Assembly: GCA_046261875.1 (NCBI GenBank)
Contig: JBHENW010000050.1
Coordinates: 2,875-66,874, forward strand
Origin: Thermoanaerobaculia bacterium
GTDB lineage: Bacteria > Acidobacteriota > Thermoanaerobaculia > UBA5066 > Gp7-AA6
DNA length: 64,000 nt
Reading direction: 5' to 3'
Each line of letters begins with the position of its first letter. The stretch's first letter is position 1. Shown piece by piece: positions 32,249 through 51,859 of the stretch. The notes under the pieces were generated by a model. That model did no database searches. It was given only the letters and a program-made list of their open reading frames with translations, and had not been told where the DNA came from. A program made the translations under genes and the position numbers.

Positions 32249-33304
32249 TCAGCAGATTCGCGGCAGGGCTTCTCCGAACGGCAGGTCGAGAATCCGTTCG
32301 CCGCCGATGGGAGTTCGGAGCGTGACGAAGCCCGGATGATCCGCGGTGACGTGGCCGATACGGACCGCCTGGCGTCCGAGCGGATGCTGCCGCATCCTTT
32401 CCAGCACCGCCTCGGCTCCCTCTTCGGGCACGAAAGCGACGAGCTTGCCCTCGTTCGCCACGAGGAGAGGATCGAGGCCGAGGATCTCGCAGGCGCCCCG
32501 CACGGTGTCTCGTACCGGTATCGTCGTCTCGTCGACGGCGATGCCCAGACCGCGGCGCGTCGCGATTTCCACCAGGACCGCCGCGAGGCCCCCGCGCGTG
32601 GGGTCGCGCATCGCATGGATGTCCGGAAACGCGTCCATGAGCGAGAGCGCGAGCTCGTGGAGGGGAGCGGTGTCGCTTTCGATCTGACCCTCGAACTCGA
32701 GGCCCTCCCGCTTCGAGAGGATGGCCACCCCGTGGTCCCCGATCGTTCCCGAAAGCAGGATCGCATCGCCCGGTCGCACCCGCCGCGACGACAGCTCCAC
32801 GGCGGGAGCCAGAACGCCGATCCCGGCGGTGTTGACGAAGACCTTGTCGCCGCTGCCCCGGCCGACGACCTTCGTATCTCCGGTCACGATCTGGACCCCG
32901 GCGCGTTGCGCCGCTTGCGAGGCGGATGCGACGACGCGCTTGAGCTCTTCCAGTGAAAAGCCCTCCTCCAGGATGAAGGCGAGGGAGAGAAAGAGCGGGC
33001 GCGCCCCCCCGACGGCCAGGTCGTTGACCGTTCCGTTGACGGCGAGCTCTCCGATGTCGCCTCCGGGGAAGAAGATCGGCGTCACCACGTAGGAGTCGGT
33101 CGTGAACGCCAGCCGGCAGCCGTTGACCGTGATGACCGCCTGATCGTCCAGAGGCTCCAAAGCGGCATTGCGAAAGGCGGGAAGAATGATCTGCTCGATC
33201 AGCTGGCCGCTGAGCTTCCCGCCGCTCCCGTGTCCCATCAGGATCTCGCCCGTCTCGGCGATGGGGAGCGGGCAGTCGGAAAAGGGCACGACGGTGTCTG
33301 TCAT
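32249..33304 (-). CDS. hypE: Hydrogenase maturation factor HypE (carbamoyl dehydratase)
   Basis: 351 aa. PurM-like fold motifs and the characteristic C-terminal ...PRIC. Confidence 0.9.
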   Translation of the reverse strand: MTDTVVPFSDCPLPIAETGEILMGHGSGGKLSGQLIEQIILPAFRNAALEPLDDQAVITVNGCRLAFTTDSYVVTPIFFPGGDIGELAVNGTVNDLAVGGARPLFLSLAFILEEGFSLEELKRVVASASQAAQRAGVQIVTGDTKVVGRGSGDKVFVNTAGIGVLAPAVELSSRRVRPGDAILLSGTIGDHGVAILSKREGLEFEGQIESDTAPLHELALSLMDAFPDIHAMRDPTRGGLAAVLVEIATRRGLGIAVDETTIPVRDTVRGACEILGLDPLLVANEGKLVAFVPEEGAEAVLERMRQHPLGRQAVRIGHVTADHPGFVTLRTPIGGERILDLPFGEALPRIC

Positions 33305-33331
33305 CCGGCCGGCCGCCCGATCGAGAGTGCT

Positions 33332-33913
33332 CTAAATAACATCGTCCTCGCCCAGGGCGACGTGGAGGAGGTCCCAGAGCAGGTGGAGAAGCACCGTATG
33401 GGTTTCCTGCACGCGGTGGATGGACCAGGCGTTGACCGTGAAGCAGTAATCGCAGGAGTCGGGCATCTGCCCGCCGTCGCGTCCGGAGAAGCCGATCGTC
33501 AGGAGCCTCAGCTCCCGCGCCCGCCGCAGCGCCCGGTTGACGTTGGTGGAAGCCCCGGAGGTCGAGATCCCCAGCGCCATGTCTTCCGGCCGGGCGAGCA
33601 GCTCGAGCTGATCGGTGAAAACGCGGGAAAAGTCGGTGTCGTTGCCGATCGCCGTCAGGGTCGCGGTGTCCACGGTCAGAGCCGCCGCGGGGAGGGCCCG
33701 GCGCTTCTCGATGATGGGGTGCTGGAATTCCACGGCGACGTGCTGCGCGTCACAGGCCGAGCCGCCGTTGCCCATCACCCAGAGGCGTCCCCCGGCACGG
33801 AAGCGCTCCGCCATGGCCCGCACACAGTTCTCGAGCTGCTCCGCGTTCTCTTCGAAGAACCGGACCTTGACCTCGGCGCTTTCACGCGCTTTGCGAAGGA
33901 TGGCTTCTCGCAC
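33332..33913 (-). CDS. SIS-domain phosphoheptose-isomerase-like protein (GmhA/DiaA family) embedded in the hyp cluster
   Basis: [11 protein letters not shown] and [15 protein letters not shown] motifs. Probable GTG start at about 33913 (the track ORF start at 33982 overlaps the hypD end). Confidence 0.7.
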
Positions 33914-35006
33914 CGGTCCCCAGGTACCTCCCGTATTGATAGTAGGCCGCGCAGCTGCCCTCGGCCGAGACCATGGTCGCACCGAGCGGCGTCTGCGGCG
34001 TGCACTCGCGCCCGAAGGCGGGGCAGTCCGACGGCTTCTTGAGGCCCCGCAGAATCAGGCCGCTGATGCAGAGCGAGGACTCGGCCGTCTCGATCGTGTC
34101 GACCTCGAAGCGCTTCTCCGCGTCATGCTCGGTGTATTCGTACCGGACCTTGTAGCCGGATTTCGGGATGGACCCGACCCCCCGCCACTTGCGGTCGGCG
34201 ATCTCGAAGACCTCGAAGACCAGGTCGCGCGCCGGCTTGTTCCCGTCGCGCGTGACCAGCCGCGAATACTGGTTTTCCACCTCCGCGCGGCCCGCCTCGA
34301 GCTGGCGCACGATCATCAGGATTCCCTCCAGGAGATCGATCGGCTCGAACCCCGTGATCACGATGGGGACCCGGTATCGTGCCGCCAGAGACTCGTACTC
34401 CCGAAAGCCCATGACCGCGCAGACGTGTCCGGGTCCCAGGAATCCCTCGACGCGGTTTCCCGGGGCCTGGAGGATGGCCGCCATGGCCGGCGGGACCAGG
34501 ACATGCGAGACGAGCATCGAAAAGTTGCCGACGCCCTCCCGCTTCGCCCGATAAATCGCCATGGCGTTGGCCGGAGCGGTCGTCTCGAACCCGATGCCGA
34601 AGAAAACGACCCGCCGGGAGGGATTCAGACGGGCGATCTTCACGGCGTCGAGCGGTGAGTAGACGACGCGCACGTCGGCGCCGCGGCTCTTCAGCGTGAG
34701 CAGGTCGCCCCGCGACCCGGGGACCCGGAGCATGTCGCCGAAGGACGTGAAGATCACGTCCGGCAGGGCGGCGATCGCGTGAGCCCGGTCGATCATCTCC
34801 ATGGACGTCACGCAGACGGGACAGCCCGGCCCGTGGACGAGCTCGACGCTCGCGGGCAACATCTGGTCGATTCCGTAACGGATGATCGAGTGGGTCTGGC
34901 CGCCGCAGACTTCCATGAGCACCCAGGGACGGGTCGCGGTCCGGGCGATGCGCGAGGCGAGATGACCGGCGAGCCCCGCGTCGCGGTATTCGTCGAGGTA
35001 TCTCAC
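33882..35006 (-). CDS. hypD: Hydrogenase maturation factor HypD
   Basis: [13 protein letters not shown] and FETTAP motifs and C-terminal CxxC..C cluster ligands. GTG start at 35006 (MRYLDEYRD). Confidence 0.9.
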
Positions 35007-35278
35007 GACGGTCTCGTCTCCGGATTCTCGTCCAGGTCCGCGGTCAGCTCGCCGAGCTGACCTATTTCTTCCAGGATCCGCAGGGACTCCGCGGCCTGTT
35101 CGGGATCGATCTTGGAGATCGCGAAACCGACGTGCACGGCCACGTACTCGCCGGGGACCGCGTCGGGCACGTACGCGAGGCAGACGTCGCGCGTGATGCC
35201 CCCGAAACGCACGCGGCCGAACTTCAGACCCTTCTCGTCGCGGATCTCGAGGATTTCTCCCGGTATCGCCAGGCACAT
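35003..35278 (-). CDS. hypC: Hydrogenase assembly chaperone HypC/HupF
   Basis: 91 aa beginning [12 protein letters not shown] (essential Cys2). Confidence 0.85.
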
Positions 35279-35280
35279 GG

Positions 35281-37578
35281 TCAGCTCTCCCGTATCCGCC
35301 AGGCGGCTACGGCGGCCTGGCCGAGCGACAGCCCGCCGTCGTTGGGCGGGACCTGCCGGTGTAACAGGACCTCGAAGGCGTCTGTCTCGAGCAGCGTCGC
35401 GCAAAGCTCGGTGAGGCGCCGGTTCTGAAAGCAGCCGCCCGACAGGGCGACGACGCGGACCCCGGTCTCCTCCCGCGCGCGGGAACATCCCTCCCGGACC
35501 GCGGCGGCGAGGGTCGCGTGGAAGCGGGCCGAGATCTCCGCCGTCTCCGCCTTCGAACGGAGTTGCGCGGCGATCTCGCGGACGCAAGGACGCAGGTCGA
35601 CCTCGAACGGCGCCGGGCGATCTCCTCGGATGACGAAGGCGAAAGGCCGGGCGGCGTCCGAACCGGCGGCGGCCTCCAGCTCGATCGCCGCCTGGCCTTC
35701 GTAGGTGACGTGATCCCGGACGGCGCAGAGCGCCGCGACCGCGTCGAACCACCGCCCCGCCCCCGTGCTATCCGGCGAAGCGACCCTCTTCTCGATCAGG
35801 TGCGCGACGCCGGCCAGGCGCGGGCCGATCCGGCCGAGCAGGTCGAGCGGCTCTCCCGCGTCCCGCAGGACGGCCGCGGCGAGGCGCCAGGGCTCCCGGA
35901 TCGCCGCCTCCCCCCCGGGCAAGGCGACCGGCCGCAGATGGCCAATCCGGCGAAAGCCAGAAAAGTCAGCGAGCAGAAACTCACCGCCCCAGAGCTCGCC
36001 GCGCGGGCCGCAACCCGTTCCGTCGAACGCGACACCGATCGCGCGGTCCGTCCGGCCGTTGTCGGCCAGGCAGGAAGCGATGTGCGCATGGTGGTGCTGG
36101 ACCGGGATCCGCGGAAGCCCGCTCCGCAGCGCGAATCGCGTCGAGGCGTAGTCCGGGTGGAGATCGTGCGCGAGCGTGCGGGGGTTGGTTCCCAGCAGCT
36201 GCGAGAGCTTGACGCCGACCTCGCGGAAGAAGGAAAACGCCTGCAGGTTATCGAGGTCCCCCACGTGCGGAGACAGAAACGCCTCGCTCCCGCGCGTCAG
36301 GCAAACGGTGTTTTTCAGCTGGGCTCCCAACGCGAGGACCGGGGGAGCCTCGAACGGCAAGCGGATCGGGATGGGAACGAAGCCGCGCGAGCGGCGGACC
36401 GGCTGGGCGAACCCCGCGAGGATCCGCACGACCGAGTCGTCTGCCCGGGTATGTATCTCCCGGTCGTGGAGAAGAAAGGCGTCCGCGATGCCTGCCAGAC
36501 GCTCCAGAGCCTCCTCCTCGGTGCGCGCGATGGGCTCCTCCGAGCGGTTTCCGCTCGTCATGACGAGCAGGAGCGGGCCGCTCGCCAGGATCAGATGGTG
36601 GAGCGGCGCGTAAGGGAGCATGATCCCGTACTCGTTCAGCCTCGGCGCGACGGAAGGAGCGAGGGAGGTCCTCACCGGCATCAGCACGATCGGACGCTGC
36701 GGCGAGAGCAGAGCCTCGCGGGCGGCCGGACCGACCTCGCAGATCGCCTCGATTTCGTCGAGCGTTCCGGCCATGAGCGCGAACGGCTTGTCGGGACGGC
36801 CCTTGCGTTCCCGCAGCCGCCGCAGGGTCCGCTCGTTCGAGGCGTCCGCGGCGAGGTGGAAGCCCCCGATGCCCTTGATGGCGACGATCTGCCCCGCCCG
36901 AAGCCGATCAGCCGCCGCCAGGAGCGCGTCTTCGCGAAGGAGGGGCGCGCAACCGGGCGCCACGAGCTCCAGACGCGGGCCGCACCCGGCGCACGCGTTG
37001 GGCTCGGCGTGAAACCGCCGGCTCGCCGGGTTCTCGTATTCCCTGCGGCAGGGATCGCACAGGGTGAACCGGGCCATGGTCGTCCGTTTCCGGTCGTAAG
37101 GCACGTCGCGGACGATCGTGTACCGGGGACCGCAGTCCGTGCAGTTGATGAACGGATAGCGGTACCGCCGATCCGCGGAATCGAAGAGCTCTTTCAGGCA
37201 CGCGGCGCAGGTGGCGGCGTCGGCCGGGATGCTCGTGGCGGCGGACGTGGCTTCGCCGCTCGCCACCACGCGAAATGCAGTCTCCCCGAGGGGCGCCAGC
37301 TCGGACATCTCCACGGCGTCGATTCGCGCCAGCGGCGGAGCACCGGCGCGCAGCAGGGCGGCGAAGCCGCTCACCGTTTCCAGGGGCCCCTCCAGCTCGA
37401 TCCAGACCCCTTGCGAGTCGTTGCGGACGATGCCGGCAAGGCCCGCTTGCCGCGCCAATCGAAACACGGCGGGACGGAACCCCACCCCCTGCACGGTTCC
37501 GCGGACGCGCAGGCCGCGCCGGACGGCGGGGCTTGCGGCGGGCGCCTCCGCAGACCGGGTCGCGCTCATGACGTCCAT
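35281..37578 (-). CDS. hypF: Carbamoyltransferase HypF
   Basis: 765 aa. Acylphosphatase domain ([14 protein letters not shown]), two Zn-finger CxxC pairs (CAACLKE...CTDCGPRYT), YrdC and Kae1-like domains. Confidence 0.9.
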
Positions 37579-38333
37579 GCGTTCGCGACCGCTCCGATCG
37601 CGACCACGGCGGGCGACCCGGGGGCGTAATCGAGGAGGGCCTTTCCGGCTCGCTCCGATTGGAGCACCGCTTCGTCGAAGGGGACCCAGCCGGCGATGGG
37701 GATCCCGCGCGCCTCACAGAACTCACGGACCGCGATCTCGTCCTCGGCCGTTCGCGCCTTGTTCGCAACGGCCTCGACCCTCGGGATGCCGAGCTCGCGG
37801 CCGAGCTCGACCGCGCGCGCGCCCGTCTCCAGCGCCCGGAAGTACGGCTCCATGACCACCACGAGCGCATCGACGTGCCGCGGCGTCCCGCGGCTGAAGT
37901 TCTCGAGCCCCGCCTCCATGTCCGCGACGACGGGGCCCGTGGAGGCGCCGACGAGCTGGGCGAGCAGGCTACGCACGGTAGCGTGGTTGCGGCACATTCA
38001 ACCGGTCCCCGCGTGCCCCACGCGGCCCAGGATCAGGAGCCGGACGCCGTCCGGCGCCTCGACTCCGTAGCGCTCCGCGATCTCTTCCGGGGAGGCCACC
38101 AGCATCAGCTTTTCTTCGCCGTCGATGTCTTTGCGGCGCTCCATCACGTCGCGGGGCACGGTGGGGAGGCGCATCGCGTCCGACGGCGAGAGCCCCAGCG
38201 CGACCGCCAGGTTCGGGTTGGAATCGCCGTCCACCGCGAGAGCTCTCCCCTCGCGTCTCCCGAGCAGGCGGGTGAGGGTCGCCGCGATCGTCGTCTTCCC
38301 GACGCCACCCTTCCCGCCGATGGCGATCCTCAC
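37566..38333 (-). CDS. CooC-like MinD/ParA-family Ni-insertion ATPase interrupted by one in-frame TGA (37998-38000) at the conserved C-x-C motif; selenocysteine candidate or nonsense pseudogene
   Basis: The 111-aa ORF (MRIAIGGKGGVGKTTIAATL...ILGRVGHAGTG*) and the 143-aa ORF (MCRNHATVRSLLAQLV...) are in the same frame, separated only by TGA. They total 255 aa. Confidence 0.6.
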
Positions 38334-38638
38334 CTGTTCCTCCGATCGTCAACCCTCGGCTCGCCCGCGGATCCCGGCTCGTGCTCGTGATCCTGCTGGC
38401 AGGAGAACCCGCATTCCCCGTGTCCCTCCGCCAGCATCTCCCGGAAGTTGTCGACGAATCGCCGGCGGGCCTCGGGGAGACCGGACTCGGTCAGAGCGTA
38501 TCGTTCCTCGGGCCGCCGCTCGACGGCGCCCAGCGCTTCCAGAGTCTGAAGCGTCGCCGCGATCTCCGGCTCGGGATAGACCAGAAACCCGGCGAGGTCG
38601 CGGGCGGAAAGCTGCTCGCCAAAACCCTGTCCCCGCAT
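38330..38638 (-). CDS. Small hypothetical protein (about 102 aa) with wHTH-like N-terminus and Cys/His/Glu-rich C-terminal tail (HGECGFSCQQDHEHE); possible metal-binding accessory protein
   Basis: Internal ATG at 38638 (MRGQGFGEQLSARDLAGFLVYPEPEIAATLQTLEALGAVER...). Position between the Rieske gene and the CooC-like gene. Confidence 0.4.
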   Translation of the reverse strand: MRGQGFGEQLSARDLAGFLVYPEPEIAATLQTLEALGAVERRPEERYALTESGLPEARRRFVDNFREMLAEGHGECGFSCQQDHEHEPGSAGEPRVDDRRNR

Positions 38639-38712
38639 CCAGAAGAGAAGCTCCAGGACCTCGTCCCGGCGCGCGACCTCCCGGACCGCCTCCCCGTCGG
38701 GCGTGGGCCGGC

Positions 38713-39489
38713 TCACAGCCCCACCAGCACGGCCGTGGCGTCGAGGCGGACCGGAAGGAGCTCGAGCGAAAGCTCGGGGCGATCCACGCAATGGCCGTCG
38801 GAGAGATCGAAGCGGTGTCCGTGACAGGGGCACGTGATCACGCGACCCTCGCGGCGCCATCCTTCGGGAGCCATCCCTCCCGACGGGCAGCGATCCCGGA
38901 ACGCGTACACCTCGCCTCCGACGTCGCAGGCGAGCACGGAGTCGTCGAACATCTGGATCCTGCGAAGCTCTTCGTCCTCGAGCTCGAAGCGGTGCACGAG
39001 CGGAAGCCAGTTCCGCCGTTTTTCGGCGTAGGCCATGTTGACCGATGACGTCACGATGACGGCGTGATCCGGCAGATCGTCTTTCAGGGACTTCTCGACC
39101 TCGGAAGCCAGAGTCTCGAGCGAGACCGCGGGGTCGAGCGGTCGGACCAGGTGGATTCGCACGGACCCGGGGGTCACTTCCATCAGCTGCGCGGCCGTTC
39201 GGTCTTTCTCGAGGAGCGGCCGGAGCCGTTCGAGCGCCGATCCGACCTGCCGGGCGACGTCGGTTTCGATGAGCCCATAGCCCTCGAGGATTCCCGCCAC
39301 CACGGGATCCCGGCGGAGCTTCTCGACAAGGCCCGGGTCGGACGCGCCGGCGATCGCGAGGGTGCGCGCGAACGCGTCGCGGTGCAGATCGAGAACGGCC
39401 CCGAGCGCTTCGACGATCCGATTCCGGCCGTCGTCGTAGGAGTACATCTCGAGCACTCGAAGAAGCTCCTCCAGCTTGTCATCGCCCAT
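38713..39489 (-). CDS. Hydrogenase-associated Rieske-type [2Fe-2S] protein (N-terminal helical domain plus C-terminal CxH...CxxH)
   Basis: C-terminus DRCPSGGMAPEGWRREGRVITCPCHGHRFDLSDGHC. Recalled resemblance to HucE/HhyE proteins of actinobacterial high-affinity hydrogenases. Confidence 0.6.
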   Translation of the reverse strand: MGDDKLEELLRVLEMYSYDDGRNRIVEALGAVLDLHRDAFARTLAIAGASDPGLVEKLRRDPVVAGILEGYGLIETDVARQVGSALERLRPLLEKDRTAAQLMEVTPGSVRIHLVRPLDPAVSLETLASEVEKSLKDDLPDHAVIVTSSVNMAYAEKRRNWLPLVHRFELEDEELRRIQMFDDSVLACDVGGEVYAFRDRCPSGGMAPEGWRREGRVITCPCHGHRFDLSDGHCVDRPELSLELLPVRLDATAVLVGL

Positions 39490-39970
39490 GTTCGGCCGCC
39501 AGGACTTCGCGCACCCGAATGGCCGCCTCGTTCACCGCAGCCCGGACCGGCGGGGAGAGGGTGAGATCCAGTTCACAGCTCTGGGGTTCACATCCCACGA
39601 TCGTCACATCGTCGGGAAGATAGCCGAGCGTCCGGGCGACTTTCATGGCCCGCGTCGGTTCCGCGAAGTGCGGATCGATCCCGGGCTCGGAAGCGGGGGC
39701 GAGATCCGCCTGGCTCGGGTGGAACACGTAGAGGGTTCCCGGCGGCTGCCCGCGGCGCACCGCGTCCACGATGACGAGCCGGCCGCAGCCGTTCATCAAT
39801 CCGAACACGAGCTCCATTCCGCCGATGCCGACTTCGAGGAGCTCCGCTCCCGGAGGAAGCGGATCCTCGGCGAGCCTCCGAACGACTTCCACCCCGAACC
39901 CGTCATCGCCCAGGAGGAGGTTTCCGAACCCGGCCACGACCGCCCGCCCGGATGTCACGACGGCAGCCAT
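39479..39970 (-). CDS. Hydrogenase maturation endopeptidase (HupD/HybD/HyaD family)
   Basis: 163 aa. GFGNLLLGDDGFGVEVVRRL and the GMELVFGL...HF region. Confidence 0.85.
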   Translation of the reverse strand: MAAVVTSGRAVVAGFGNLLLGDDGFGVEVVRRLAEDPLPPGAELLEVGIGGMELVFGLMNGCGRLVIVDAVRRGQPPGTLYVFHPSQADLAPASEPGIDPHFAEPTRAMKVARTLGYLPDDVTIVGCEPQSCELDLTLSPPVRAAVNEAAIRVREVLAAEHGR

Positions 39971-40539
39971 CCGGCGATGGCGCGGCGGATCTCCTCGATC
40001 ACGCGGGGCACCGCCCGCTCGACGACGGGAGAGAGCTCCTCTCCCCAGTCGTCATCCAGGGCCTCGACTTCGATGACGACCACGTCCTGCGGCAGCTTGT
40101 CGAAGTAGGTGGCGATGATGAGGATGTTGTCGAGGCTGATGACGCCGGTCACGGCCTCGGCGACGCGCGCCTGGATCTCGTCTGCATCGGGAAGCGTACG
40201 GCGCCACGGGTAACGCAGGACGTCTCCCGGGGGGCGGCCCCGCTTGACGGCTCCCACGAGAACGATCCGGTCGTACGGGGGGCGGGCGTCGAGATTGTGC
40301 ATGACGCCCACCGGTCCATAGCTCAAATCCTCGAACTCGACCCCGTCCGGCCAGCTCTCCCGTGCGAGGCGCTCGATGAGAAGCGGGCCGAAGGAAAGGT
40401 CCCGCAGGAGGCGGTAGCCCACCCCGCCCACCAGAAGGCGTGGACCTCTCGAGGATTCGAGCTCTGTGGTCAGGCCGGAAGCGTCCGGATCGGGGCCGGT
40501 GAGCTTCCGCGAGCTCTCAATCGTCGGTCCCGCAGGCAC
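39955..40539 (-). CDS. Second, divergent hydrogenase maturation protease-like paralog
   Basis: LLVGGVGYRLLRDLSFGPLLIERL...GPVGVMHNLDA pattern. Overlaps the large-subunit 3' end and the hupD-like start. Confidence 0.6.
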   Translation of the reverse strand: MPAGPTIESSRKLTGPDPDASGLTTELESSRGPRLLVGGVGYRLLRDLSFGPLLIERLARESWPDGVEFEDLSYGPVGVMHNLDARPPYDRIVLVGAVKRGRPPGDVLRYPWRRTLPDADEIQARVAEAVTGVISLDNILIIATYFDKLPQDVVVIEVEALDDDWGEELSPVVERAVPRVIEEIRRAIAGWLPS

Positions 40540-42379
40540 AGGTGTTCACCTCGCACGTGATGTGCTGGTCGCCGGCGTAGATGTGGGTCGTGCACGGCAT
40601 GCACGGGTCGAAGCTGCGGATGGCGCGGAGGATGTCGATTCCCCGGAACTTCTCCGGGCTGGCGAACTCCTCGAGGATCGGAGTCGCCAGGACGGCCTCT
40701 TCGTAGGGGCCCGGGTTGCCCCACGGGTCTTTCGGGCAGGCGTTCAACGTGGACGGCGTGATGATCTGGTAGTTGACGATCGCCCCCTTGTCGAGCTCCA
40801 GGTGGTGCGAGAGCCAGCCGCGTCCCGCGCCCCAGAAACCGACCCCCATCCGATGGTCCTTCGGAACCTCGAACGGAGTCGACGTGCGGTAGTCGCCCGT
40901 TTTCAGGATATCCATCCCGATCAGCCAGTTGTCGTAGGCGACCACGCACTGGTACGCGATCGAGTACGCCCGCGCGCGATTGCGCTCGAACGCGTTGAAA
41001 ACCGGAGGGATCTTCCACTCGACCTCGACCGCCGGATCGATGTACTTCGGGATCAGGATCTTCATGCCGTCCGGCGTCAGATCGAGGAACCGCCGATGGG
41101 GGAGCTTGCCTGCGAGCACGGTGATCCACGGTCGGGCGTAGGTCCCGGCTTCCACAGCCACCCGGTCCCATCGAGGCGCGGTGGCCCAGCTGTACTTCTC
41201 GCGCCAGTTGGTTCCGCCCGGTTTCGGTTTCGTTTCCTTGTTCCAGGGGTGGTGGGGCGACAGGGGAGCTCCGAGCGGGTCCGTCTTGTGGGGGTGGCCG
41301 GTCCACTGCTCGTAGTAGGAGTGCTCGATGAACTCCTCCATGCCGAGATTTATCTGCTGGAGCTTCGTCGTAACGAGCTTTCCATCGAGGATCACGCCGG
41401 GCGTCGCCCATCTCCGCTCCCCCCAGGCGTTGCAGTTCGCATAGGTGGCGTCGTAGGCGGTCGGGTCGTCCCAGATTCCGAGATCGGCCATGTTGACGGG
41501 CCGCGTGCCGCACTCTTTGTACTTTGCGTTCGCGTCGTAGAAGAAGTCCGCGATGTCGTTCCAGATCGCGATGGCCCGCTTGGCGAAGTCGAAGGTCTTC
41601 ATCAGTCGATTGAGGTACACGTTGAAGCTCTGGATCGTCACGGTGTGGCTGATGCCGCCGGGGACGATCGTCTCGGGGTGCGGATACTTGCTCATCAGGG
41701 TCACGTAACCCTCGCGCGCCATGCGGGAAAGCTCCAGACCCTCGAGATACAGCTTGCCCACGAGGGGGTTCATGTCGTGGAAGAGATCGCTCATCTTCGA
41801 GTACCCGTGGATGCTTCCCCAGCGCGTCTCCGTGCGCGTCGCCCGGTCCCAGAGCGTCGGCTCCGTCTTCTTGATCATGGCCTCGGAGTAGTCCGGGCCG
41901 GCCAGCATGAAGAGATGCATGCTGTTGTCCCACACGAACTCCATCGAAAGCGCGAGGTTGCGGATGACGACGGCCAGGGGCGGGGGGCAGATCCCGAACG
42001 CCATCTCGATCGCGAGAGCGGAGCAGGTCGAGTGGACGCCGCCGCACACCCCGCAGGCGCGGCTGCTGATGAAGATCGCGTCGCGCGGATCGCGCCCCTT
42101 CAGAATCACTTCGTATCCGCGAAAGAGCGTCGCGATCGAGCTCGCTTCGAGGACCATGCGGTTCTCGAGGTCCACGACGCTGTGGAAGCCGAGCGCTCCG
42201 GCCACGCGCGTGAGCGGGTCGTAGTCCATCGCCTTGACGTAGCCGTTCTTCGCGAGGAGCTTCTTGATCCCGTCGCGATCGATCGCCTTCGTTTCGTACG
42301 CGAACGGGTCGGCGGCCCCGCCTCGAAGGGTTGCGCCGCCCTGTGCGTCGAACTCGATTGGAAGGTTACGGAAGCACAT
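40517..42379 (-). CDS. hhyL: [NiFe]-hydrogenase large subunit, group-1h-like (high-affinity / actinobacterial type)
   Basis: 620 aa. L1 motif SSRACGVCGGVHS and L2 motif SFDPCMPCTTH (Cys, not Sec), followed by a roughly 20-aa C-terminal tail. Confidence 0.9.
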   Translation of the reverse strand: MCFRNLPIEFDAQGGATLRGGAADPFAYETKAIDRDGIKKLLAKNGYVKAMDYDPLTRVAGALGFHSVVDLENRMVLEASSIATLFRGYEVILKGRDPRDAIFISSRACGVCGGVHSTCSALAIEMAFGICPPPLAVVIRNLALSMEFVWDNSMHLFMLAGPDYSEAMIKKTEPTLWDRATRTETRWGSIHGYSKMSDLFHDMNPLVGKLYLEGLELSRMAREGYVTLMSKYPHPETIVPGGISHTVTIQSFNVYLNRLMKTFDFAKRAIAIWNDIADFFYDANAKYKECGTRPVNMADLGIWDDPTAYDATYANCNAWGERRWATPGVILDGKLVTTKLQQINLGMEEFIEHSYYEQWTGHPHKTDPLGAPLSPHHPWNKETKPKPGGTNWREKYSWATAPRWDRVAVEAGTYARPWITVLAGKLPHRRFLDLTPDGMKILIPKYIDPAVEVEWKIPPVFNAFERNRARAYSIAYQCVVAYDNWLIGMDILKTGDYRTSTPFEVPKDHRMGVGFWGAGRGWLSHHLELDKGAIVNYQIITPSTLNACPKDPWGNPGPYEEAVLATPILEEFASPEKFRGIDILRAIRSFDPCMPCTTHIYAGDQHITCEVNTCACGTDD

Positions 42380-42430
42380 GATTGTCAGCTTTCCGCTGTC
42401 ACCTCTCGTGTGTCAGCGTGTCGCGTTGCC

Positions 42431-43828
42431 TCAGGCGGGAGGACCGCCCTCCGTCCCGGCCGTCACGGTCTCCACGGCATGTTCGCGCGTTTCGGGGTCC
42501 CGGGAGCGCAAGTCGCGTTCGAGCTTCGCGCGCCGCCGTGCGTAGCCCCACCTCATCTCGCCCTCTTCCGGATCCTTCTTCCGTGCGTCATAAGCGATCT
42601 TGCCCTCGACCTCGTAGCCGTCCCGGAACCTCGTCTGCGGCTCCGCGCGGCCCGGCTTGACCGCCTGGCGGAACTGCAGCTTCCGGTAGAAGAAGTCGGC
42701 GAGCCGACCGAAGAGGGGGTCGCCGTGCTTTTCGAGAGCCCAGCCGCTCGGTGTCTCCTGGAGATGGTCCCAGAGGGGCTCGCGATTCTGATGATCCTGA
42801 GAGAGACGCCGCAGGGCGCGGATCACGCGTCCGACGTTTCTCGACGTGTGCGTGGACACCGTCGCTCCCGGCGGCTCCTTGTAGAAGGGCGTGAACTTGT
42901 CGGGGAACCCCGGCATCGTGCATCCGATGCAGATGCCTCCCTGGTTCATGCAGCCGCCGTGGTGCCGGATCGCTCCGCGCTCGACGATGTTGCACTGCAC
43001 GACCGGACCCCAGCATCCGAGCGGTACCAGACACTCCGGGTCCCCGTACTTCTTGGCGAACACTCCGCCCTCGTAGTAGCCGCCCCGGATGCACCGCTCG
43101 TGGACGGTGTGATGGAACTGCCAGGCGGGCCTTCCGAGCTCGTCGAACTCCGGGAGAGGGCCGGTTCCCTGGAGAAAATGCAGGACCATTGCGACCACTT
43201 CGGTGAAGTTGTCGCCGACGGGAGCGCATCCCGGGATGTTGATGACGGGCAACCCGAAGGCGCTGCGATAGTTCTTCCCGAGATAATCCATGAGACCCAT
43301 CGAGCCGGTCGGATTTCCCACGGCGGCGGGAATGCCCCCCCAGGTCGCGCAGGTGCCGATCGCGATGGACGCCGCGGCACCCGGCGCCATCCGATCGATC
43401 CACTCCATGACGGAGATGACCGCGCCTCCGTCCTCCTCCGGCTTCGCGGGGTGGGCGCCGAGGCCCACCCAGTAGCCCGGCCCGTCAATCAGCGAGTCAT
43501 CGACTGCGGACCCCTCCAGAATGATCACGTACGGCGCGTCGAGCTTTCCCTGGGCGGCGAGCTCGAAGTTGTGGACGAATTCTTCGCCCGCCTCGGCGTT
43601 CAGGACCGGATGGTAAAGGATGACTCGGGGGAGCCCGGGCACTGTCCCGAGGAGAAGGTCTTCGAGCGACGGATCGGAGGACCCCGAGACGGAGATCGTG
43701 CACCCGTCGCAGCTCATGCCGGCGAGCCAGAAAGCGTAGACCTTCTCGATCGGCCGCGTCAGCGACGGGGGCAAGGGCTCGAGCTCGACGGAGAGACCTC
43801 CGGGTTGGATTCCCGCAGGCTCCGGCAT
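42431..43828 (-). CDS. hhyS: [NiFe]-hydrogenase small subunit without Tat signal, with about 150-aa C-terminal extension
   Basis: ATG at 43828 (MPEPAGIQPGG...). FeS ligand motifs CDGCTISVSG, GTCATWGG, GCAPVG, HERCIRGGYYE, CWGPVVQCN and CIGCTMPGFPD. No RRxFxK. Confidence 0.85.
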   Translation of the reverse strand: MPEPAGIQPGGLSVELEPLPPSLTRPIEKVYAFWLAGMSCDGCTISVSGSSDPSLEDLLLGTVPGLPRVILYHPVLNAEAGEEFVHNFELAAQGKLDAPYVIILEGSAVDDSLIDGPGYWVGLGAHPAKPEEDGGAVISVMEWIDRMAPGAAASIAIGTCATWGGIPAAVGNPTGSMGLMDYLGKNYRSAFGLPVINIPGCAPVGDNFTEVVAMVLHFLQGTGPLPEFDELGRPAWQFHHTVHERCIRGGYYEGGVFAKKYGDPECLVPLGCWGPVVQCNIVERGAIRHHGGCMNQGGICIGCTMPGFPDKFTPFYKEPPGATVSTHTSRNVGRVIRALRRLSQDHQNREPLWDHLQETPSGWALEKHGDPLFGRLADFFYRKLQFRQAVKPGRAEPQTRFRDGYEVEGKIAYDARKKDPEEGEMRWGYARRRAKLERDLRSRDPETREHAVETVTAGTEGGPPA

Positions 43829-43842
43829 GGTCGTCCCTTCTT

Positions 43843-44136
43843 TCACGAGATGAGCCCGAGAGCGCGCGCCGCGCCGGGCAGGTTTTCGGCTGTCGATGTC
43901 AGGTGCTGCTGAACCGCCGTCAAGCCCCCTCCGATCGCTGTCAGCCCTCCCGCCACACCCGAGATCCCCGCGGGAAGGGGAGACGTCTCCACTTCGATGG
44001 CCCGCACGCCCCAGGCGATCTTCTCGAGGCTCCGGCGGATTCCGGAAAGAGCCTTGTAGATCATGGCGAGAGCCCAGGCGAGGGCCCCCAGAAGAACCAG
44101 AAACAGCAGCGCGGTCAGGATCGTCCAGAGGACCAT
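43843..44136 (-). CDS. Small single-pass membrane protein, paralog 4 of 4 (N-terminal TM helix plus Ala/Gly-rich helical domain; YtxH/DUF948-like architecture)
   Basis: MVLWTILTALLFLVLLGALAWALAMIYKALSGIRRSLEKIAWGVRAIEVETSPLPAGISGVAGGLTAIGGGLTAVQQHL... Its stop lies 14 nt upstream of the hhyS ATG. Confidence 0.55.
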   Translation of the reverse strand: MVLWTILTALLFLVLLGALAWALAMIYKALSGIRRSLEKIAWGVRAIEVETSPLPAGISGVAGGLTAIGGGLTAVQQHLTSTAENLPGAARALGLIS

Positions 44137-44432
44137 CACGCTTCCCGCGGGGGCGCCACGGCGTCGAGCGTGACGGCAATCTTTTGCGATACGGAGTCGA
44201 TGCCGCCCGCCACCGAGAGCAGCGTCGGCGCGAGCTTCAAGACCGCGCCCAGGTCCGCGATGGCGGCCGTGTTCCGGCCAATTCCCTGCGCCGCGGGAAC
44301 CGCTGTCCGCGCGAGCTCGCTGATCTGCTTGCAGCAATGGATCACCTTGAAGAGGTACCAGGCGGCCACCGCCGTCAGGAGGAGGGCCAGCCCGAGCGAG
44401 ATCCACCAGATCCAGAGAACCATCGCGCTCAT
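44136..44432 (-). CDS. Small single-pass membrane protein, paralog 3 of 4
   Basis: MSAMVLWIWWISLGLALLLTAVAAWYLFKVIHCCKQISELARTAVPAAQGIGRNTAAIADLGAVLKLA... Overlaps its neighbours by 1-4 nt. Confidence 0.55.
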   Translation of the reverse strand: MSAMVLWIWWISLGLALLLTAVAAWYLFKVIHCCKQISELARTAVPAAQGIGRNTAAIADLGAVLKLAPTLLSVAGGIDSVSQKIAVTLDAVAPPREA

Positions 44433-44725
44433 GCGGCGCTCGAGCGAAAACGCTTCGCGATACGTCCGAGGCTGCCGTCGGCGAGAACGAGCCAGTTCAG
44501 GACCGAACCGAGTCCCGCTCCGAGCTGCGCGAGCGCGCCGTTGACCTGCTCCAGGGCTCCGCCCAGGGGCCGGGTATCCGCTTCGACCTTCGCGAGGGCA
44601 TCGCGAATCTCGCGGATCGCCTTCGCCGTCGCCCAGAGGTACCGGGCGATCAGAATCAGTCCCACGGCGAGGACCGCCACGAGGATCCCCAGATAGGCGA
44701 GGGTTGCGACGAGAACGGGAGGCAC
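44429..44725 (-). CDS. Small single-pass membrane protein, paralog 2 of 4
   Basis: MPPVLVATLAYLGILVAVLAVGLILIARYLWATAKAIREIRDALAKVEADTRPLGGALEQVNGALAQLGAGLGSV... Confidence 0.55.
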   Translation of the reverse strand: MPPVLVATLAYLGILVAVLAVGLILIARYLWATAKAIREIRDALAKVEADTRPLGGALEQVNGALAQLGAGLGSVLNWLVLADGSLGRIAKRFRSSAA

Positions 44726-44726
44726 G

Positions 44727-45005
44727 TCAGCGGCCCCCGCGGGCCAGATCCGAGAGCTTCGCGTCGATCGCTCCCGCGCCCGCGGCGATTCCCTTCGCCG
44801 TCGCGAGGATGTCTCCGGCGACGGCGTTGGTCTTCTGCAGCATCCAGATCGAGACCGTGTTGGCCGCGATCTGCTTGCCGGCGATCCAGATCTCGTTGGC
44901 GCGCTTGTCGATGGACCGGGCCGCCGCGATGATGATCAGGAGCAGCGCCGCCACGATCAGCACGACGACCAACCCGATCGCCCAGGAGATCTGCCAGAGG
45001 GTCAT
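44727..45005 (-). CDS. Small single-pass membrane protein, paralog 1 of 4 (first gene of the hydrogenase operon)
   Basis: MTLWQISWAIGLVVVLIVAALLLIIIAAARSIDKRANEIWIAGKQIAANTVSIWMLQKTNAVAGDILATAKGIAAGAGAIDAKL... GAAGGGAGGGG RBS upstream. Confidence 0.55.
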   Translation of the reverse strand: MTLWQISWAIGLVVVLIVAALLLIIIAAARSIDKRANEIWIAGKQIAANTVSIWMLQKTNAVAGDILATAKGIAAGAGAIDAKLSDLARGGR

Positions 45006-45153: not shown

Positions 45154-45678
45154 ATGAGAAAAGACGACGCCGAGACCGAGGGCCTGACCAGGTCGCAAGC
45201 GCCCGGATCCGAAGCCCGCGCGCGTGAATGGCTGTCGCGCCAGTTCACACGCGTCGAAGACGTTGTTTACGCGGGCCTCGGGATACTCCTCGCGGCTGTG
45301 GCGCTCGTGCTCCTGGTCGCGAGCGCGATCGCTTTCGCCCAGAGCTTCGGTGAGGGAGCGCTGCCTCGAAACGTCGTCGGGCTCCTCGATCGGATGCTGT
45401 TGATTCTGATGGTCGTCGAGATCCTCTACACGGTTCAGGTCTCGTTCCGAAGCCACGTGCTCACCCCCGAGCCCTTCCTCATCGTCGGCCTGATCGCCGC
45501 GACGCGGCGCATCCTCGTTCTGACCGCGGAGTTCCCTGACATCCTGGAAAAGGGAGAAACGCCCTTTCGGCACGCCATGGTGGAGCTCGGCCTGCTCACC
45601 CTGCTCATCGTTGCCCTCGTGGGGTCGCTCCGGTTGCTGCGGCAGCGCCCGTCCGAGGCCGCTGCCACGAACACGTAA
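45154..45678 (+). CDS. PsiE-family (phosphate-starvation-inducible) membrane protein-like
   Basis: 174 aa, four predicted TM segments. MVVEILYTVQVSF and LIVGLIAATRRILV resemble E. coli PsiE segments. Confidence 0.5.
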   Translation: MRKDDAETEGLTRSQAPGSEARAREWLSRQFTRVEDVVYAGLGILLAAVALVLLVASAIAFAQSFGEGALPRNVVGLLDRMLLILMVVEILYTVQVSFRSHVLTPEPFLIVGLIAATRRILVLTAEFPDILEKGETPFRHAMVELGLLTLLIVALVGSLRLLRQRPSEAAATNT

Positions 45679-45692
45679 CGCAAGACGCTTCC

Positions 45693-46466
45693 GTGAATCT
45701 GCCGCCACACATCTTGGGCCGGATCACGGCACGCCGGGACATCGCTTCACGATACTGGACCATTCGGATTGGCTGCGATCCCCGGCCGGTTTTCCGCCCG
45801 GGGCAGTTCGCGACGCTCGCCGTACGCGACCGGGACAAGATGGTCGAACGGCCGTACTCGATCGTTTCCTCGCCGCGGGAGGCCGAGCTGGAGTTCTTCC
45901 TCCAGCTCGTGCCGGAAGGAGCACTCACCCGGAGACTTCACGCTCTCCATCCGGGTGACCCGATCCACCTCCGGAAGGTCACGAAGGGGACCTTCCGCTT
46001 CGACGACACGAGCGGGCGGCGGAAGCACCTCATGGTCGCGACGTCCACCGGGGTCGCCCCGTTCGTGAGCATGCTTCGGACCTTCCGGCGGGAGCCCCTG
46101 GCCGATCATCAGGTCTTTCTTCTGCACGGAGCGAGCGATCCCTCACAGCTGGGCTACGACGAAGAGCTCGGGGGTCTCGCGCGGGAGGTCGAGTGGTTTC
46201 ACTACGTGCCGGTGATCAGCCGCCCAAGAGAGCACCCGGGATGGGCCGGCGAACGCGGCCGCCTGCCCGGCCTCCTTTCCGCTTACGCCGCTCGCTTTGG
46301 CTGTGAGCCGGGCGACACGACTGCCTACCTCTGCGGTAACCCGCACATGATCAAAGCCGCGAAGAACGCGGTGTCGGCGTTGGGCTTGCCGCCGGACGCG
46401 GTCAAGGAAGAGCGCTTCTGGGTGGAGGAAAAGGTGACGACCGGGGCGCCGGGTCAGACCGCGTAA
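45693..46466 (+). CDS. Ferredoxin-NADP+ reductase-like FAD/NAD(P)-binding oxidoreductase
   Basis: 257 aa. RPYSIVSSP (RxYS FAD motif) and the MVATSTGVAPF NAD(P) motif. Confidence 0.75.
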   Translation: MNLPPHILGRITARRDIASRYWTIRIGCDPRPVFRPGQFATLAVRDRDKMVERPYSIVSSPREAELEFFLQLVPEGALTRRLHALHPGDPIHLRKVTKGTFRFDDTSGRRKHLMVATSTGVAPFVSMLRTFRREPLADHQVFLLHGASDPSQLGYDEELGGLAREVEWFHYVPVISRPREHPGWAGERGRLPGLLSAYAARFGCEPGDTTAYLCGNPHMIKAAKNAVSALGLPPDAVKEERFWVEEKVTTGAPGQTA

Positions 46467-46873
46467 GGCTCCTTGAGGTATCGCTTCGGCGCCTTGAGAA
46501 ACGCGCTGCGCGTCTTCTCCGACTCGAAGAAGAAGCGCCGCGGCCACTCCTCGACCTTTCCGTCACTCTTGCGGACCTTCACCCGCCGGTCCACTGTAAA
46601 TGCCGTGCGGATCTTGTGGACACGAGCCCCGCTGACCGGGTCCGAGGCCCACACGTACTTCTCCGGGTTGGCTCGAATCATGTCGAGCTCGGCGGGACTG
46701 CAGAGCCAGATCTTCTTCCCTTCGTAGGTCGAAGGTCTTCCGTCGTTGCTGTCGAAGGTGTAATCGCCGCAGGCCACGCAGATGACCTGTTCGGAATGGG
46801 CTGCGGGCTGTCCCGCCGGTGCGATGCCGCCCAACGCCGCCGCCAGCGCCAAAGCGGCGGCGGCACCCTTCAC
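46454..46873 (-). CDS. Hypothetical secreted protein
   Basis: 139 aa. Signal peptide MKGAAAALALAAALGGIAPAG. CVACGDY...WLCSP Cys pairs. Confidence 0.45.
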   Translation of the reverse strand: MKGAAAALALAAALGGIAPAGQPAAHSEQVICVACGDYTFDSNDGRPSTYEGKKIWLCSPAELDMIRANPEKYVWASDPVSGARVHKIRTAFTVDRRVKVRKSDGKVEEWPRRFFFESEKTRSAFLKAPKRYLKEPYAV

Positions 46874-47193
46874 GGCGTGTCGGAGACCGTCGGAGGTTTG
46901 ACTTGCGCTTCCTCGGCGGGCGTGGGCCGGCGGCGGCGGGTGGCGAGCCTGGCCGCGAGCAGCACCGCCAGGCCGAGGCTCCCCTCGATCGCGATCGCCG
47001 GGTAGATTTGAGAGCCGAAGAGGGGGAGCAGGGTTGGCGCGTTGCGGACGGCGACGTATTTCGCCGGCGAGCAGGTCTGTCCCTTACAGAGCCAGGACTC
47101 GCAGGATTTTGCCTTCGGCGCCGCCGCGAGTGCGACGGACAATCCGCCGGCCGCAAGGAGTGCCGTGAACGCCGCGAGCTTCTTGACCTTCAT
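46870..47193 (-). CDS. Hypothetical small secreted/membrane-anchored Cys-containing protein
   Basis: 107 aa. Signal peptide MKVKKLAAFTALLAAGGLSVALAAAP, CESWLCKGQTC, C-terminal hydrophobic segment. Confidence 0.4.
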   Translation of the reverse strand: MKVKKLAAFTALLAAGGLSVALAAAPKAKSCESWLCKGQTCSPAKYVAVRNAPTLLPLFGSQIYPAIAIEGSLGLAVLLAARLATRRRRPTPAEEAQVKPPTVSDTP

Positions 47194-47319
47194 GCCGCCC
47201 TCCTCGCCCCGACAGGCTCGAGTCTAGCAGTCCTCGGGCCCCAAAGGAATCTTGACTTTAGGCCTCCCGAGGCAAACAGTTCGATTTTTCGAAGTCGAGT
47301 TGGGGGAGGAGTTTTAGCC

Positions 47320-49478: not shown

Positions 49479-50035
49479 AACAGGAGACCGCCGCGCCGGA
49501 CATCGCCGTGGAGGAGAAACCGAGGGGGAGGTCACGCCGCGGGCTCATTTACCTGCTCTTTCCTCTCGTCGTTCTCGGCGCGGGGCTCGCGCTCGCTCCC
49601 GAGCGTCTCCCGCGGTTCCTTCTGGGGTTCGCGTACAGGGGGCCGCTCGTCGAGACGGTGCGATGGCGTGAGTGGGTCGAGCGAAATCCCACCCTGTTCG
49701 GGCCTCTGGGAGAGACGGCGCGGTTCGCGATCGTCGAAAGTCCCGAAGACTCGACCGGCCTGCTCTTCACCCGGGGGCCGGATGGCGTGCGCGTGGAAAA
49801 AACCCACTTCCTTCAGTTCCAAGGCATCCCGGTCATGCTGGCGATGCCTCCGACGGCAGCCGAAGAGCTTCTGCGGCTGGATCAGCGGGAGGGCAACAAG
49901 TTCTGGGACGGCGTGAAATTCCTCGTGCAGACTCGCCGGATCATCGCGTACGTACGCGCTCCACGCGCCGAGCTCGATCGCGTCGGTCTGACCGGCTTTC
50001 TCCAGGTGCTCGACGCCATTCCACCCAAATCCTAG
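49475..50035 (+). CDS. Hypothetical membrane-anchored protein, translationally coupled to the TonB receptor
   Basis: GTG overlaps the receptor stop (GTGA). N-terminal TM LIYLLFPLVVLGAGLALA. Confidence 0.45.
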   Translation: MKQETAAPDIAVEEKPRGRSRRGLIYLLFPLVVLGAGLALAPERLPRFLLGFAYRGPLVETVRWREWVERNPTLFGPLGETARFAIVESPEDSTGLLFTRGPDGVRVEKTHFLQFQGIPVMLAMPPTAAEELLRLDQREGNKFWDGVKFLVQTRRIIAYVRAPRAELDRVGLTGFLQVLDAIPPKS

Positions 50036-50046
50036 GCTCGGTGCGC

Positions 50047-50394: not shown

Positions 50395-50447
50395 CCGTCG
50401 AGTTTATGCCGCGCCCAATCGCACCGCCCCCTCGTTAGACTGGCGCG

Positions 50448-51825: not shown

Positions 51826-51859
51826 GGCCGTGAGCCGCGCATTCTAGCCCTCCGGCGTC

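Follow-up and report, generated by a model that had tools for sequence, protein, structure and literature searches.

Much of the uptake of atmospheric H2 by soils, and the ability to 'live on air' in deserts, is attributed to [NiFe]-hydrogenases of groups 1l and 1h, and group 1l has been reported as the leading system for the oxidation of atmospheric H2 in Antarctic desert soils. No account has yet been given of the way in which nickel reaches the 1l enzymes. The group was defined by Ortiz et al. (bioRxiv 10.1101/2020.08.06.239558, Supplementary Note 1), and the features given there are a proximal cluster with four cysteine ligands, as against the aspartate found in group 1h, a C-terminal extension of ~100 aa in the small subunit HylS, five small single-pass genes (HylTM1-5) placed between hylS and hylL, and a Rieske-like protein, HylE, together with a maturation protease. 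The second described system that must be considered is CooC, an ATPase with a deviant Walker A motif; the two cysteines of the –C-x-C– motif of CooC1 (Cys112 and Cys114) lie at the dimer interface and bind one Ni or Zn (PMC6006190). Here, we describe a stretch of 64,000 nucleotides from a Thermoanaerobaculia bacterium of the phylum Acidobacteriota (contig JBHENW010000050.1, positions 2,875 to 66,874; hereafter the window). A single cluster on its minus strand, recognised by gene calling and Pfam and NCBIfam scans and running from 45005 down to 32249, contains a hydrogenase with the features of group 1l and a CooC-like ATPase whose gene is interrupted by an in-frame UGA codon.

It is this UGA, overlooked in a preliminary description of the same DNA, that forms the main interest of the locus. 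We read the cluster, operon-like and complete in itself, as that of a presumably air-tolerant group 1l (Hyl) hydrogenase, cytoplasm-facing and membrane-associated, whose nickel would be delivered by a CooC-family ATPase containing selenocysteine (Sec); taken as a whole, this interpretation of the sequences is given a probability of about 0.74. As to one of its parts, the ATPase is very probably a selenoprotein, and a member of a widespread family that has gone unannotated. Such a family would be a new one amongst selenoproteins, would provide the first metallochaperone or maturation factor to contain Sec, and would add to the few cases in which Sec serves to ligate a metal without a part in redox catalysis, here in aerobes. 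If the proposal is correct, the oxidation of trace H2 by aerobic soil bacteria of at least eight phyla needs selenium, the availability of which becomes a testable control on H2 uptake; and if the ATPase is a nickel insertase as well as a selenoprotein, the maturation of a globally important aerobic enzyme joins the nickel and selenium economies. Annotation pipelines currently split the gene in two (dozens of public clusters at 90% identity), with the result that neither the protein nor the Sec trait shows up in metabolic surveys of metagenome-assembled genomes (MAGs).

An in-frame UGA in a CooC-like ATPase gene

Genes were called in this high-GC window (~68%) from the GC content of third codon positions (GC3) and from translation, and the window proteins were then scanned with Pfam and NCBIfam. 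The ATPase gene (37566-38333, minus strand; Pfam CbiA) comprises 255 codons, including one TGA at 37998-38000. An open reading frame (ORF) of 111 codons (37998-38333) and another of 143 codons (37566-37997) lie in the same frame and are joined by this TGA; thus the preliminary description, which reported a CooC-like ATPase, was right about its family and its place but not in treating it as a single ORF. The best match in the PDB is CooC1 of C. hydrogenoformans (3KJE; 1.4e-32), in a single alignment covering residues 2-233. The Walker A sequence GKGGVGKTT is identical to that of 3KJE and forms part of GGKGGVGKTT at residues 6-15 of the ATPase. The two proteins are therefore alike in having a MinD/Mrp-type fold, in matching over nearly their full length and in carrying the metal motif at the same position (3KJE; PMC6006190). 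They differ in the first cysteine of that motif, for which the window has UGA, the predicted Sec codon. Read across the TGA, the sequence is …H-A-G-T-G-TGA-M-C-R-N-H…, giving the motif G-T-G-U-M-C. The TGA aligns exactly with Cys112, the first Cys of the CooC1 –C-x-C–; the second Cys is kept, and the –C-x-C– is complete only if the UGA stands for Sec or Cys.

Protein searches show how this gene appears in the databases. Relatives more than 65% identical to the ATPase are represented only by C-terminal fragments of ~143 aa that start MCRNHATVR… (39 distinct clusters at 90% identity), and the full-length homologues, none of them above 56% identity, have the sequence H-A-G-T-G-C-M-C-(G/R)-x-H-A. 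The C-terminal half was also used for an exhaustive HMMER search of representatives at 50% identity; amongst its 150 closest relatives, 92 have no P-loop, of which 15 start at precisely the residue that follows the Sec position, and 38 are full length. The public annotation of the fragments is 'hypothetical protein' or 'CO dehydrogenase maturation factor'.

When one genome per GTDB species was scanned, 80 loci were obtained, 79 of which could be read at the codon in question (loci related to the window are designated L001, L002 and so forth). The codon is TGA in 66 of the 79 and TGC or TGT in the other 13, a 66:13 ratio which is biased because the sampling was seeded from Sec-type sequences, and this must be held against our interpretation; TGA is also the codon in L001 and L002. 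Loci with TGA belong to Acidobacteriota, 'Deltaproteobacteria'/Myxococcota, Armatimonadota, Gemmatimonadota, Chloroflexota, Actinomycetota (Rubrobacter, Thermoleophilia and Acidimicrobiia), Planctomycetota (Planctomycetales) and Entotheonella. They make up the majority of a neighbour-joining tree, within which there are two nested Cys clades; these suggest reversion to TGC or TGT, in the usual pattern of Sec/Cys exchange.

Two simple explanations are ruled out. Assemblies that are independent of one another and differ in synteny share this in-frame codon, which disposes of a frameshift or sequencing error, and TGA is the normal stop of 39 of the 52 window genes, which disposes of a global reassignment of UGA. 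Of all the TGA codons in the window, that at 37998-38000 alone has coding signal before and after it.

Alternatively, the UGA might be a true stop, either in a pseudogene or in a split gene for which stop and restart at UGA-AUG would yield a P-loop half of 111 aa and a second half of 143 aa that reassemble. It is the case that the TGA directly precedes an ATG, both in the window and in other Acidobacteriota, and that gene callers give two ORFs. Furthermore, selA, selB, selD and tRNA-Sec were found neither in the window nor in 60 related loci (tRNA-Sec being sought with ARAGORN), and this absence of the Sec machinery, as well as favouring a stop, counts against Sec as such. The residue after the TGA can be M, L, A, T or V (codons ATG, CTG, CTC, CTT, CTA, GCG, ACG, ACC and GTA). 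Most of the other phyla have CTG, CTC, ACG, GCG or GTA at this point and no in-frame start for 8-26 codons, and because the next codon is so often not a start, stop followed by restart is excluded in most lineages. The Met of the window is itself ancestral rather than a new start, since the Cys homologues read C-M-C. A genuine stop would also have arisen exactly at a metal-ligand Cys, in a gene with purifying selection on both halves in at least eight phyla and with a MinD fold which the two halves form together as one domain, as the unbroken alignment to 3KJE indicates; and the codon is followed by a covarying hairpin and by suppression of synonymous change, as described below. Termination at this codon is accordingly rated as highly improbable.

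A candidate SECIS element after the codon

The current model of the bacterial selenocysteine insertion sequence (SECIS), termed bSECIS, sets the stem length, the loop size, a G in the first two loop positions followed by U, and a spacing of 16-37 nt (PMC13188914). A SECIS-like hairpin, GCUAC-CGUGC-GUAGC, can be drawn at 37968-37982 on the minus strand of the window, 16-30 nt downstream of the UGA, and it fits the stem, loop and spacing rules of that model (PMC13188914). With the U of UGA counted as position 1, a stem of 5 bp joins positions 19-23 to positions 29-33 and encloses a 5-nt loop of the form N-G-U-N-C. The loop of the window is CGUGC, with G-U at loop positions 2-3, and starts 20 nt after the UGA.

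Amongst the evidence for this helix is its conservation in an alignment of 68 distinct sequences, in which 90.9% of cells are paired, compared with 20-48% in controls with the 3' arm displaced by 1-3 nt. Compensatory changes are seen at three of the five pairs (U-A to C-G at 21:31, A-U to G-C at 22:30 and C-G to U-A at 20:32), cells with a double change number 37 as against 13.6 +/- 5.1 in shuffles, and RNAalifold, unprompted, gives the same helix. The covariation ties the synonymous wobble base of an Ala codon to a choice between Ser and Gly four codons on, and a choice between Thr and Ala to the wobble base of an Arg codon, an arrangement that constraints on the protein would not be expected to produce. 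The energy of the hairpin follows the identity of the codon, with a median of -4.75 kcal/mol in the TGA forms versus +0.8 in the TGC/TGT forms. Finally, across 12 acidobacterial genes, codon entropy at +1 to +10 after the UGA averages 0.10 bits, versus 0.6-1.25 in the rest of the gene, and eight of the nine codons for conserved residues in this interval are invariant.

Several properties of the RNA nevertheless weigh against Sec insertion. The window hairpin is short (5 bp) and, at -4.4 kcal/mol, lies above the bSECIS limit for minimum free energy (MFE) of <= -7.5; the 48-nt MFE of -9.7 reaches that limit, but through a different fold. In 12-13 Rubrobacter sequences, two of the five pairs are broken and an alternative stem fits instead. 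Folding of the single sequence over the 74 nt after the UGA is no better than that of shuffles (z = +1.06), and the hairpin came to light through comparative analysis alone. An Rfam scan of 37700-38300 in E-value mode gave nothing relevant. In many other lineages the stem extends to 8 bp, with hairpin energies of -6 to -8 and 48-nt MFE values of -20 to -29 kcal/mol.

A further possibility is that the UGA is recoded, but to a residue other than Sec: to Cys by a system of the tRNA-ReC/SelB* type, or to something else by a suppressor or allo-tRNA of the kind reported from soil bacteria. A hairpin-dependent signal would look alike if the SelB-like factor carried Cys, and tRNA-ReC has been discussed as an alternative in in silico work on Sec (PMC13582414). 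It would be hard to explain why 66 genomes from eight phyla should maintain so costly an apparatus for an ordinary Cys, and the reversion to TGC/TGT in two nested clades is what Sec/Cys exchange usually looks like. The known systems of this type are, to our knowledge, restricted to a few anaerobic lineages. The Sec-decoding trait is documented in Acidobacteria, Chloroflexi and Rubrobacter (PMC1794560), although as a precedent this applies at the level of the phylum only. Recoding to Cys or to some third residue thus seems very unlikely.

Most probably the UGA is read as Sec by SelB and Sec-tRNA, and the product would have a U-x-C metal site contributing two Se and two S per dimer. It may be speculated that selenolate ligation allows tighter or faster handling of nickel, or confers resistance to irreversible oxidation in aerobic, nickel-poor habitats. 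Sec in a CooC-like metal motif appears, moreover, to be recurrent. A second CooC-like subfamily with an in-frame TGA, its motif being G-C-(P/A)-U-C-G-L-S-x-E-Q-L-L, is present in two actinobacterial MAGs, L083 (3292-4032, plus strand, with the TGA at 3610-3612) and L066 (minus strand). The L083 gene has its own hairpin 17 nt after the UGA, formed by 7 bp (CCCGAGC/GCUCGGG) around a loop AGUU, with a 60-nt MFE of -22.6 kcal/mol.

An inventory of May 2026 recognises 119 prokaryotic selenoprotein families, and includes no CooC/MinD/ParA/CbiA ATPase and no hydrogenase maturation factor (PMC13188914). The metal-associated selenoproteins that it does contain, amongst which a CobW-related protein and some metal transporters come nearest, include that CobW-related protein (NF041053, UxxC), the SO_0444 Cu/Zn efflux transporter (UxC) and the large subunits of [NiFeSe]-hydrogenases; they resemble the ATPase in using Sec in place of a metal-ligand Cys and in having the SECIS immediately downstream within the coding region, and differ from it in that none belongs to CooC/MinD/ParA (PF01656) (PMC13188914). 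No model in NCBIfam release 20 scores above its cut-off on the ATPase, and a full-text search of the literature returned no report of Sec in CooC or in the maturation ATPases of CO dehydrogenase (CODH) or of hydrogenases. Within the Sec-type relatives there is some variation at the motif: L065, L068 and L074 (Thermoleophilaceae) and L078 (Acidimicrobiales) have Gly for the second Cys (U-L-G or U-T-G) and keep the hairpin.

The hydrogenase and its proposed supply of nickel

The preliminary description took the cluster to be an uptake [NiFe]-hydrogenase island of a 'group 1h-like' kind. The enzyme is indeed cytoplasmic, lacks a Tat signal and is related to 1h; the assignment to 1h is what has to be revised. 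The small subunit gene, hylS (42431-43828, minus strand; 465 aa, Pfam Oxidored_q6 and NiFe_hyd_SSU_C), contains no twin-arginine motif, as had been stated, and the large subunit gene, hylL (40517-42379, minus strand; 620 aa, Pfam NiFeSe_Hases), encodes the L1 and L2 motifs already noted, RACGVCGGVH and DPCMPCTTH, both of which can be read in the translation and are invariant across all linked loci. Its final His is followed by a tail of 21 aa, for proteolytic removal.

For both subunits, the group 1h enzyme of Cupriavidus necator (5AA5) is far ahead of the other solved structures as a match: HylS aligns with 5AA5_A (1.3e-110) and HylL with 5AA5_C (492 bits, 42.8% identity). This, the missing Tat signal and the occurrence of Rieske and SIS genes in 1h clusters as well (to judge from the part of Table S7 available to us) are what favour a 1h (Hhy) high-affinity hydrogenase, which would then have an undescribed local maturation variant with an ordinary Cys-type CooC-like ATPase. 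The details of the small subunit point the other way. It carries three clusters, and the motif of the proximal one is GMSCDGC, where the same alignment column of 5AA5 has GLGCDGD, so that the ligands are four cysteines and no aspartate; CDGC is present in every linked locus in which the motif scan found the motif (24 of the 48 loci listed). The alignment to 5AA5_A, a chain of 351 aa, stops at residue 358 of HylS, leaving a C-terminal extension of ~107 aa. Identities between large subunits tell the same story: 5AA5 and a sequence of Geodermatophilaceae from Table S7, both of them true 1h and from separate phyla, are 89% identical over the stretch that can be compared, whereas HylL is only 43% identical to 5AA5 and 46% identical to a 1h fragment, values slightly above the ~40% or less to 1h that would be looked for in a 1l large subunit. 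The ATPase-linked large subunits are 54-95% identical to HylL and 41-46% identical to 5AA5. A local variant of 1h, then, would have to account for this distance, for the extension and the HylTM genes, for the recurrence of the same gene set in dozens of genomes and for the TGA that interrupts the ATPase ORF, and it is rated as quite improbable.

Because of the CDGC motif, the ~107-aa extension, the HylTM homologues and the low identity to 1h, the enzyme is filed as group 1l; it fits that group as set by the features of the published description rather than by reference HylL sequences, a limit that tells against the assignment. With the 1l enzymes of Hymenobacter roseosalivarius and of Antarctic soil MAGs (bioRxiv 10.1101/2020.08.06.239558; PMC13554262) it shares the four-Cys HylS with its ~100-aa extension and without a Tat signal, the small single-pass membrane proteins, HylE, HupD and the CbiA and SIS neighbours. 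Group 1h, as exemplified by C. necator (5AA5), has in common with the window a cytoplasmic, Tat-less enzyme and clusters with Rieske-type partners and SIS; it differs by the aspartate ligand of CDGD, by lacking the long small-subunit extension and the HylTM genes, and by clusters that carry hypA and hypB, in the portion of Table S7 that we could consult (bioRxiv 10.1101/2020.08.06.239558).

The HylTM genes are the feature in which the window departs from the described layout, and this too must be reckoned as a difficulty. The four membrane paralogs of the preliminary description are present as single-pass proteins of ~92-98 aa, encoded in tandem on the minus strand (44727-45005, 44429-44725, 44136-44432 and 43843-44139). 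They lie upstream of hylS, hylS and hylL being adjacent, whereas the 1l definition has five such genes between hylS and hylL; in addition, none of the four proteins has a C-terminal tri-Cys motif such as occurs in described 1l systems. None of them has a match in Pfam or NCBIfam. Homologues found by tblastn (35-63% identity) do lie between the small and large subunit genes in loci of Chloroflexota, Rubrobacter and Armatimonadota. There are five such ORFs in L084, where the order hypF-hypC-SIS-SIS-hypD-hypE-hylS-(five small ORFs)-hylL-protease-like-HupD-small protein-CbiA reproduces the canonical 1l layout. The arrangement with four genes upstream is common to L001, L002 and L004, and coordinates suggest the same in other acidobacterial loci. 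The window represents a rearranged, acidobacterial variant of 1l in which the four HylTM genes have moved upstream of hylS.

The remaining genes of the cluster also lie on the minus strand. Below hylL there follow a HupD-like paralog (39955-40539; TIGR00072, 66.8 bits against a cut-off of 47.45), the maturation endopeptidase gene hupD (39479-39970; Pfam HycI 2e-15, TIGR00072 127 bits), hylE (38713-39489; Pfam Rieske 2.4e-12, the Rieske-like [2Fe-2S] domain occupying residues 160-256), and a gene for a small winged-helix protein with a Cys/His tail (38330-38686, the start being uncertain and possibly as far as 38860). Beyond the ATPase lie the carbamoyltransferase gene hypF (35281-37578; Pfam Acylphosphatase, zf-HYPF, Sua5 and HypF_C), hypC (35003-35281; N-terminus MCLAIPGE, Pfam HupF_HypC 3.2e-25), hypD (33882-35009; Pfam HypD 8.9e-152), a GmhA-like SIS-domain gene (33332-33913; Pfam SIS_2, with TIGR00441 gmhA at 141.8 bits, below its cut-off of 209) and hypE (32249-33304; Pfam AIRS and AIRS_C). 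All the genes of the earlier list, from the subunits to hypFCDE and SIS, were thus found in their places on this strand. The cluster possesses both the Rieske-type HylE and the HupD endopeptidase (Pfam Rieske, HycI and TIGR00072) that belong to the 1l description.

The window proteins were compared by tblastn with 83 related loci (~1 Mb in total, with flanks of +/-10 kb), several of which come from the MGR MAG set of Ortiz et al. (bioRxiv 10.1101/2020.08.06.239558). Where the flank is long enough, hylS and hylL are almost always accompanied by the genes for the CooC-like ATPase and the small Cys/His protein; hypCDEF and SIS are often adjacent to the ATPase or the hyl genes, SIS standing beside hypD and hypE. 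The same components occur with operons of the group 1l type across phyla, and the organisation is nearly identical in other Acidobacteriota (L001, L004, L008, L011 and L013). The legend of Fig. S5 of Ortiz et al. already lists CbiA and SIS as neighbours (bioRxiv 10.1101/2020.08.06.239558), and the earlier suggestion that the composition was that of an undescribed variant can therefore no longer be upheld. The hydrogenase island is real, and an ordinary member of the known group 1l clusters. No functional account of its maturation set was found in the literature.

HypA and HypB, which were said to be absent, were sought in several ways. A motif scan with regular expressions gave no match in the 64-kb window, and neither protein was found by Pfam amongst the other high-GC3 ORFs of the window (two at 61249-63155 lay outside the scan). 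Genuine queries from the 1h clusters of Table S7 retrieved nothing by tblastn (E <= 1e-2) from the window or the ~83 loci, nor did E. coli queries from the 83 related loci. For the 64-kb window, therefore, the three types of search bear out the view that the CooC-family ATPase is the sole candidate nickel factor. A maturation set of hypCDEF, SIS and the CooC-like ATPase, without hypA and hypB, is found again in about 80 related loci and is typical of the clade.

It is proposed that the ATPase, perhaps together with the adjoining winged-helix Cys/His protein, forms a nickel-delivery module for HylL in place of HypA and HypB. The ATPase dimer would bind Ni through two Sec and two Cys and would load HylL before HupD cuts off the 21-residue tail. 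There may be a precedent in the Thermococcales, in which HypB is reportedly an Mrp/MinD-type ATPase that takes part in nickel insertion into [NiFe]-hydrogenase; a MinD-family protein would there stand in for the GTPase HypB, although it is said to do so with HypA and is not a selenoprotein. The client also distinguishes the ATPase from CooC itself. No CODH gene (cooS/acsA) was detected by Pfam in the window, the neighbours being hydrogenase genes; cooJ and cooT are missing along with cooS, and the host is aerobic.

The proposed role is suggested by homology and gene neighbourhood, a narrow basis that is a weakness of our interpretation, and other functions have to be considered for the ATPase: delivery or repair of Fe-S clusters in the manner of Mrp/NBP35, positioning at the membrane in the manner of MinD, or service to a different metalloenzyme, with nickel supplied by HypA and HypB encoded elsewhere. 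CooC of Rhodospirillum rubrum does not bind Ni tightly, and a role in folding has been proposed for CooC (PMC6006190). The Sec-type relatives L065, L068, L074 and L078 have no hydrogenase genes within 10 kb, and the absence of hypA and hypB applies to the 64-kb window and to flanks of +/-10 kb, so that the genes may sit elsewhere in the genome, a further point on the debit side. The nearest characterised homologue is nonetheless a Ni/Zn-binding maturation factor with exactly this motif; the ATPase gene stays adjacent to hylS and hylL across phyla, in nearly every well-flanked locus, despite rearrangements; and hypCDEF are often in the cluster, hypA and hypB never. A function other than nickel insertion is, on balance, unlikely. 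With regard to the wider claim, that most 1l operons depend on an unrecognised selenoprotein, a U-x-C nickel chaperone of the CooC family replacing HypA and HypB, we consider the odds to be even.

Accessory proteins and other observations

Three of the accessory proteins differ from their standard counterparts. When the HupD-like paralog (39955-40539) is aligned with 5TTX, all three metal-ligand positions are seen to be lost (GDDGFG has become RDLSFG, with Asp to Gly and His to Gly at the others), and it is probably a non-catalytic homologue of the protease. In L001, the paralog and HupD are called as one fused gene of 363 aa. The first motif of HylE in the window is CPSGG, without His, and in all 33 of the homologues examined C-P-x-G stands in place of C-x-H and is followed by C-P-(W/C)-H-G-(C/H); ligation of its cluster is probably not that of a canonical Rieske protein. 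The small Cys/His protein belongs to no Pfam family and shows only weak resemblance to FeoC in NCBIfam. Its AlphaFold2 model (predicted local distance difference test score 80.9) has a fold weakly like the winged helix-turn-helix of the metal-sensing regulators MarR, ZitR and AdcR (E ~2e-3). Across phyla its tail conforms to H-G-E-C-x(2,3)-C-x-C-H…C, of which the tail in the clade of the window (GHGECGFSCQQDHEHE) is a degenerate form, and the gene lies beside that of the ATPase or the protease in related loci.

Two irregularities were noted in small subunit genes of the relatives. In hylS of L025, from a member of the Gemmatimonadota, a TGA (564-566, plus strand) replaces the Cys codon in C-L-V-H-I-G-*-W-G-P; of 54 loci it is the only one to show this, TGC or TGT being present in the others, and there is no obvious hairpin after the codon. 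The residue is presumably the Cys that ligates the distal cluster in standard [NiFe] small subunits, and the TGA may be due to faulty assembly or else mark a second, rare site of Sec. In L001, a 937-kb contig of a relative, gene calling gives two overlapping ORFs (178 and 280 aa) for the small subunit gene (8652-9979), which is not so in the window and suggests a frameshift or a long-read error.

Elsewhere in the window, a gene for a YdeP/FdhF-like molybdopterin oxidoreductase (19236-21461, minus strand) encodes Cys (ARLCHAA) where formate dehydrogenases of the Sec type have U, and because of this Cys it provides no evidence of Sec use. A DnaB helicase gene at 58968-61100 on the plus strand contains an intein (Pfam Intein_splicing inside DnaB_C). 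The flank of the cluster is also conserved: 45154-57356 of the window and L001:1-7314, the latter from a relative with 81% identity, share genes for YHS and HxlR proteins, a periplasmic binding protein, GTP cyclohydrolase I, an ABC-2 transporter and PolX. The YHS-domain gene adjoins the HylTM genes in both, and belongs to a known selenoprotein family which here has Cys.

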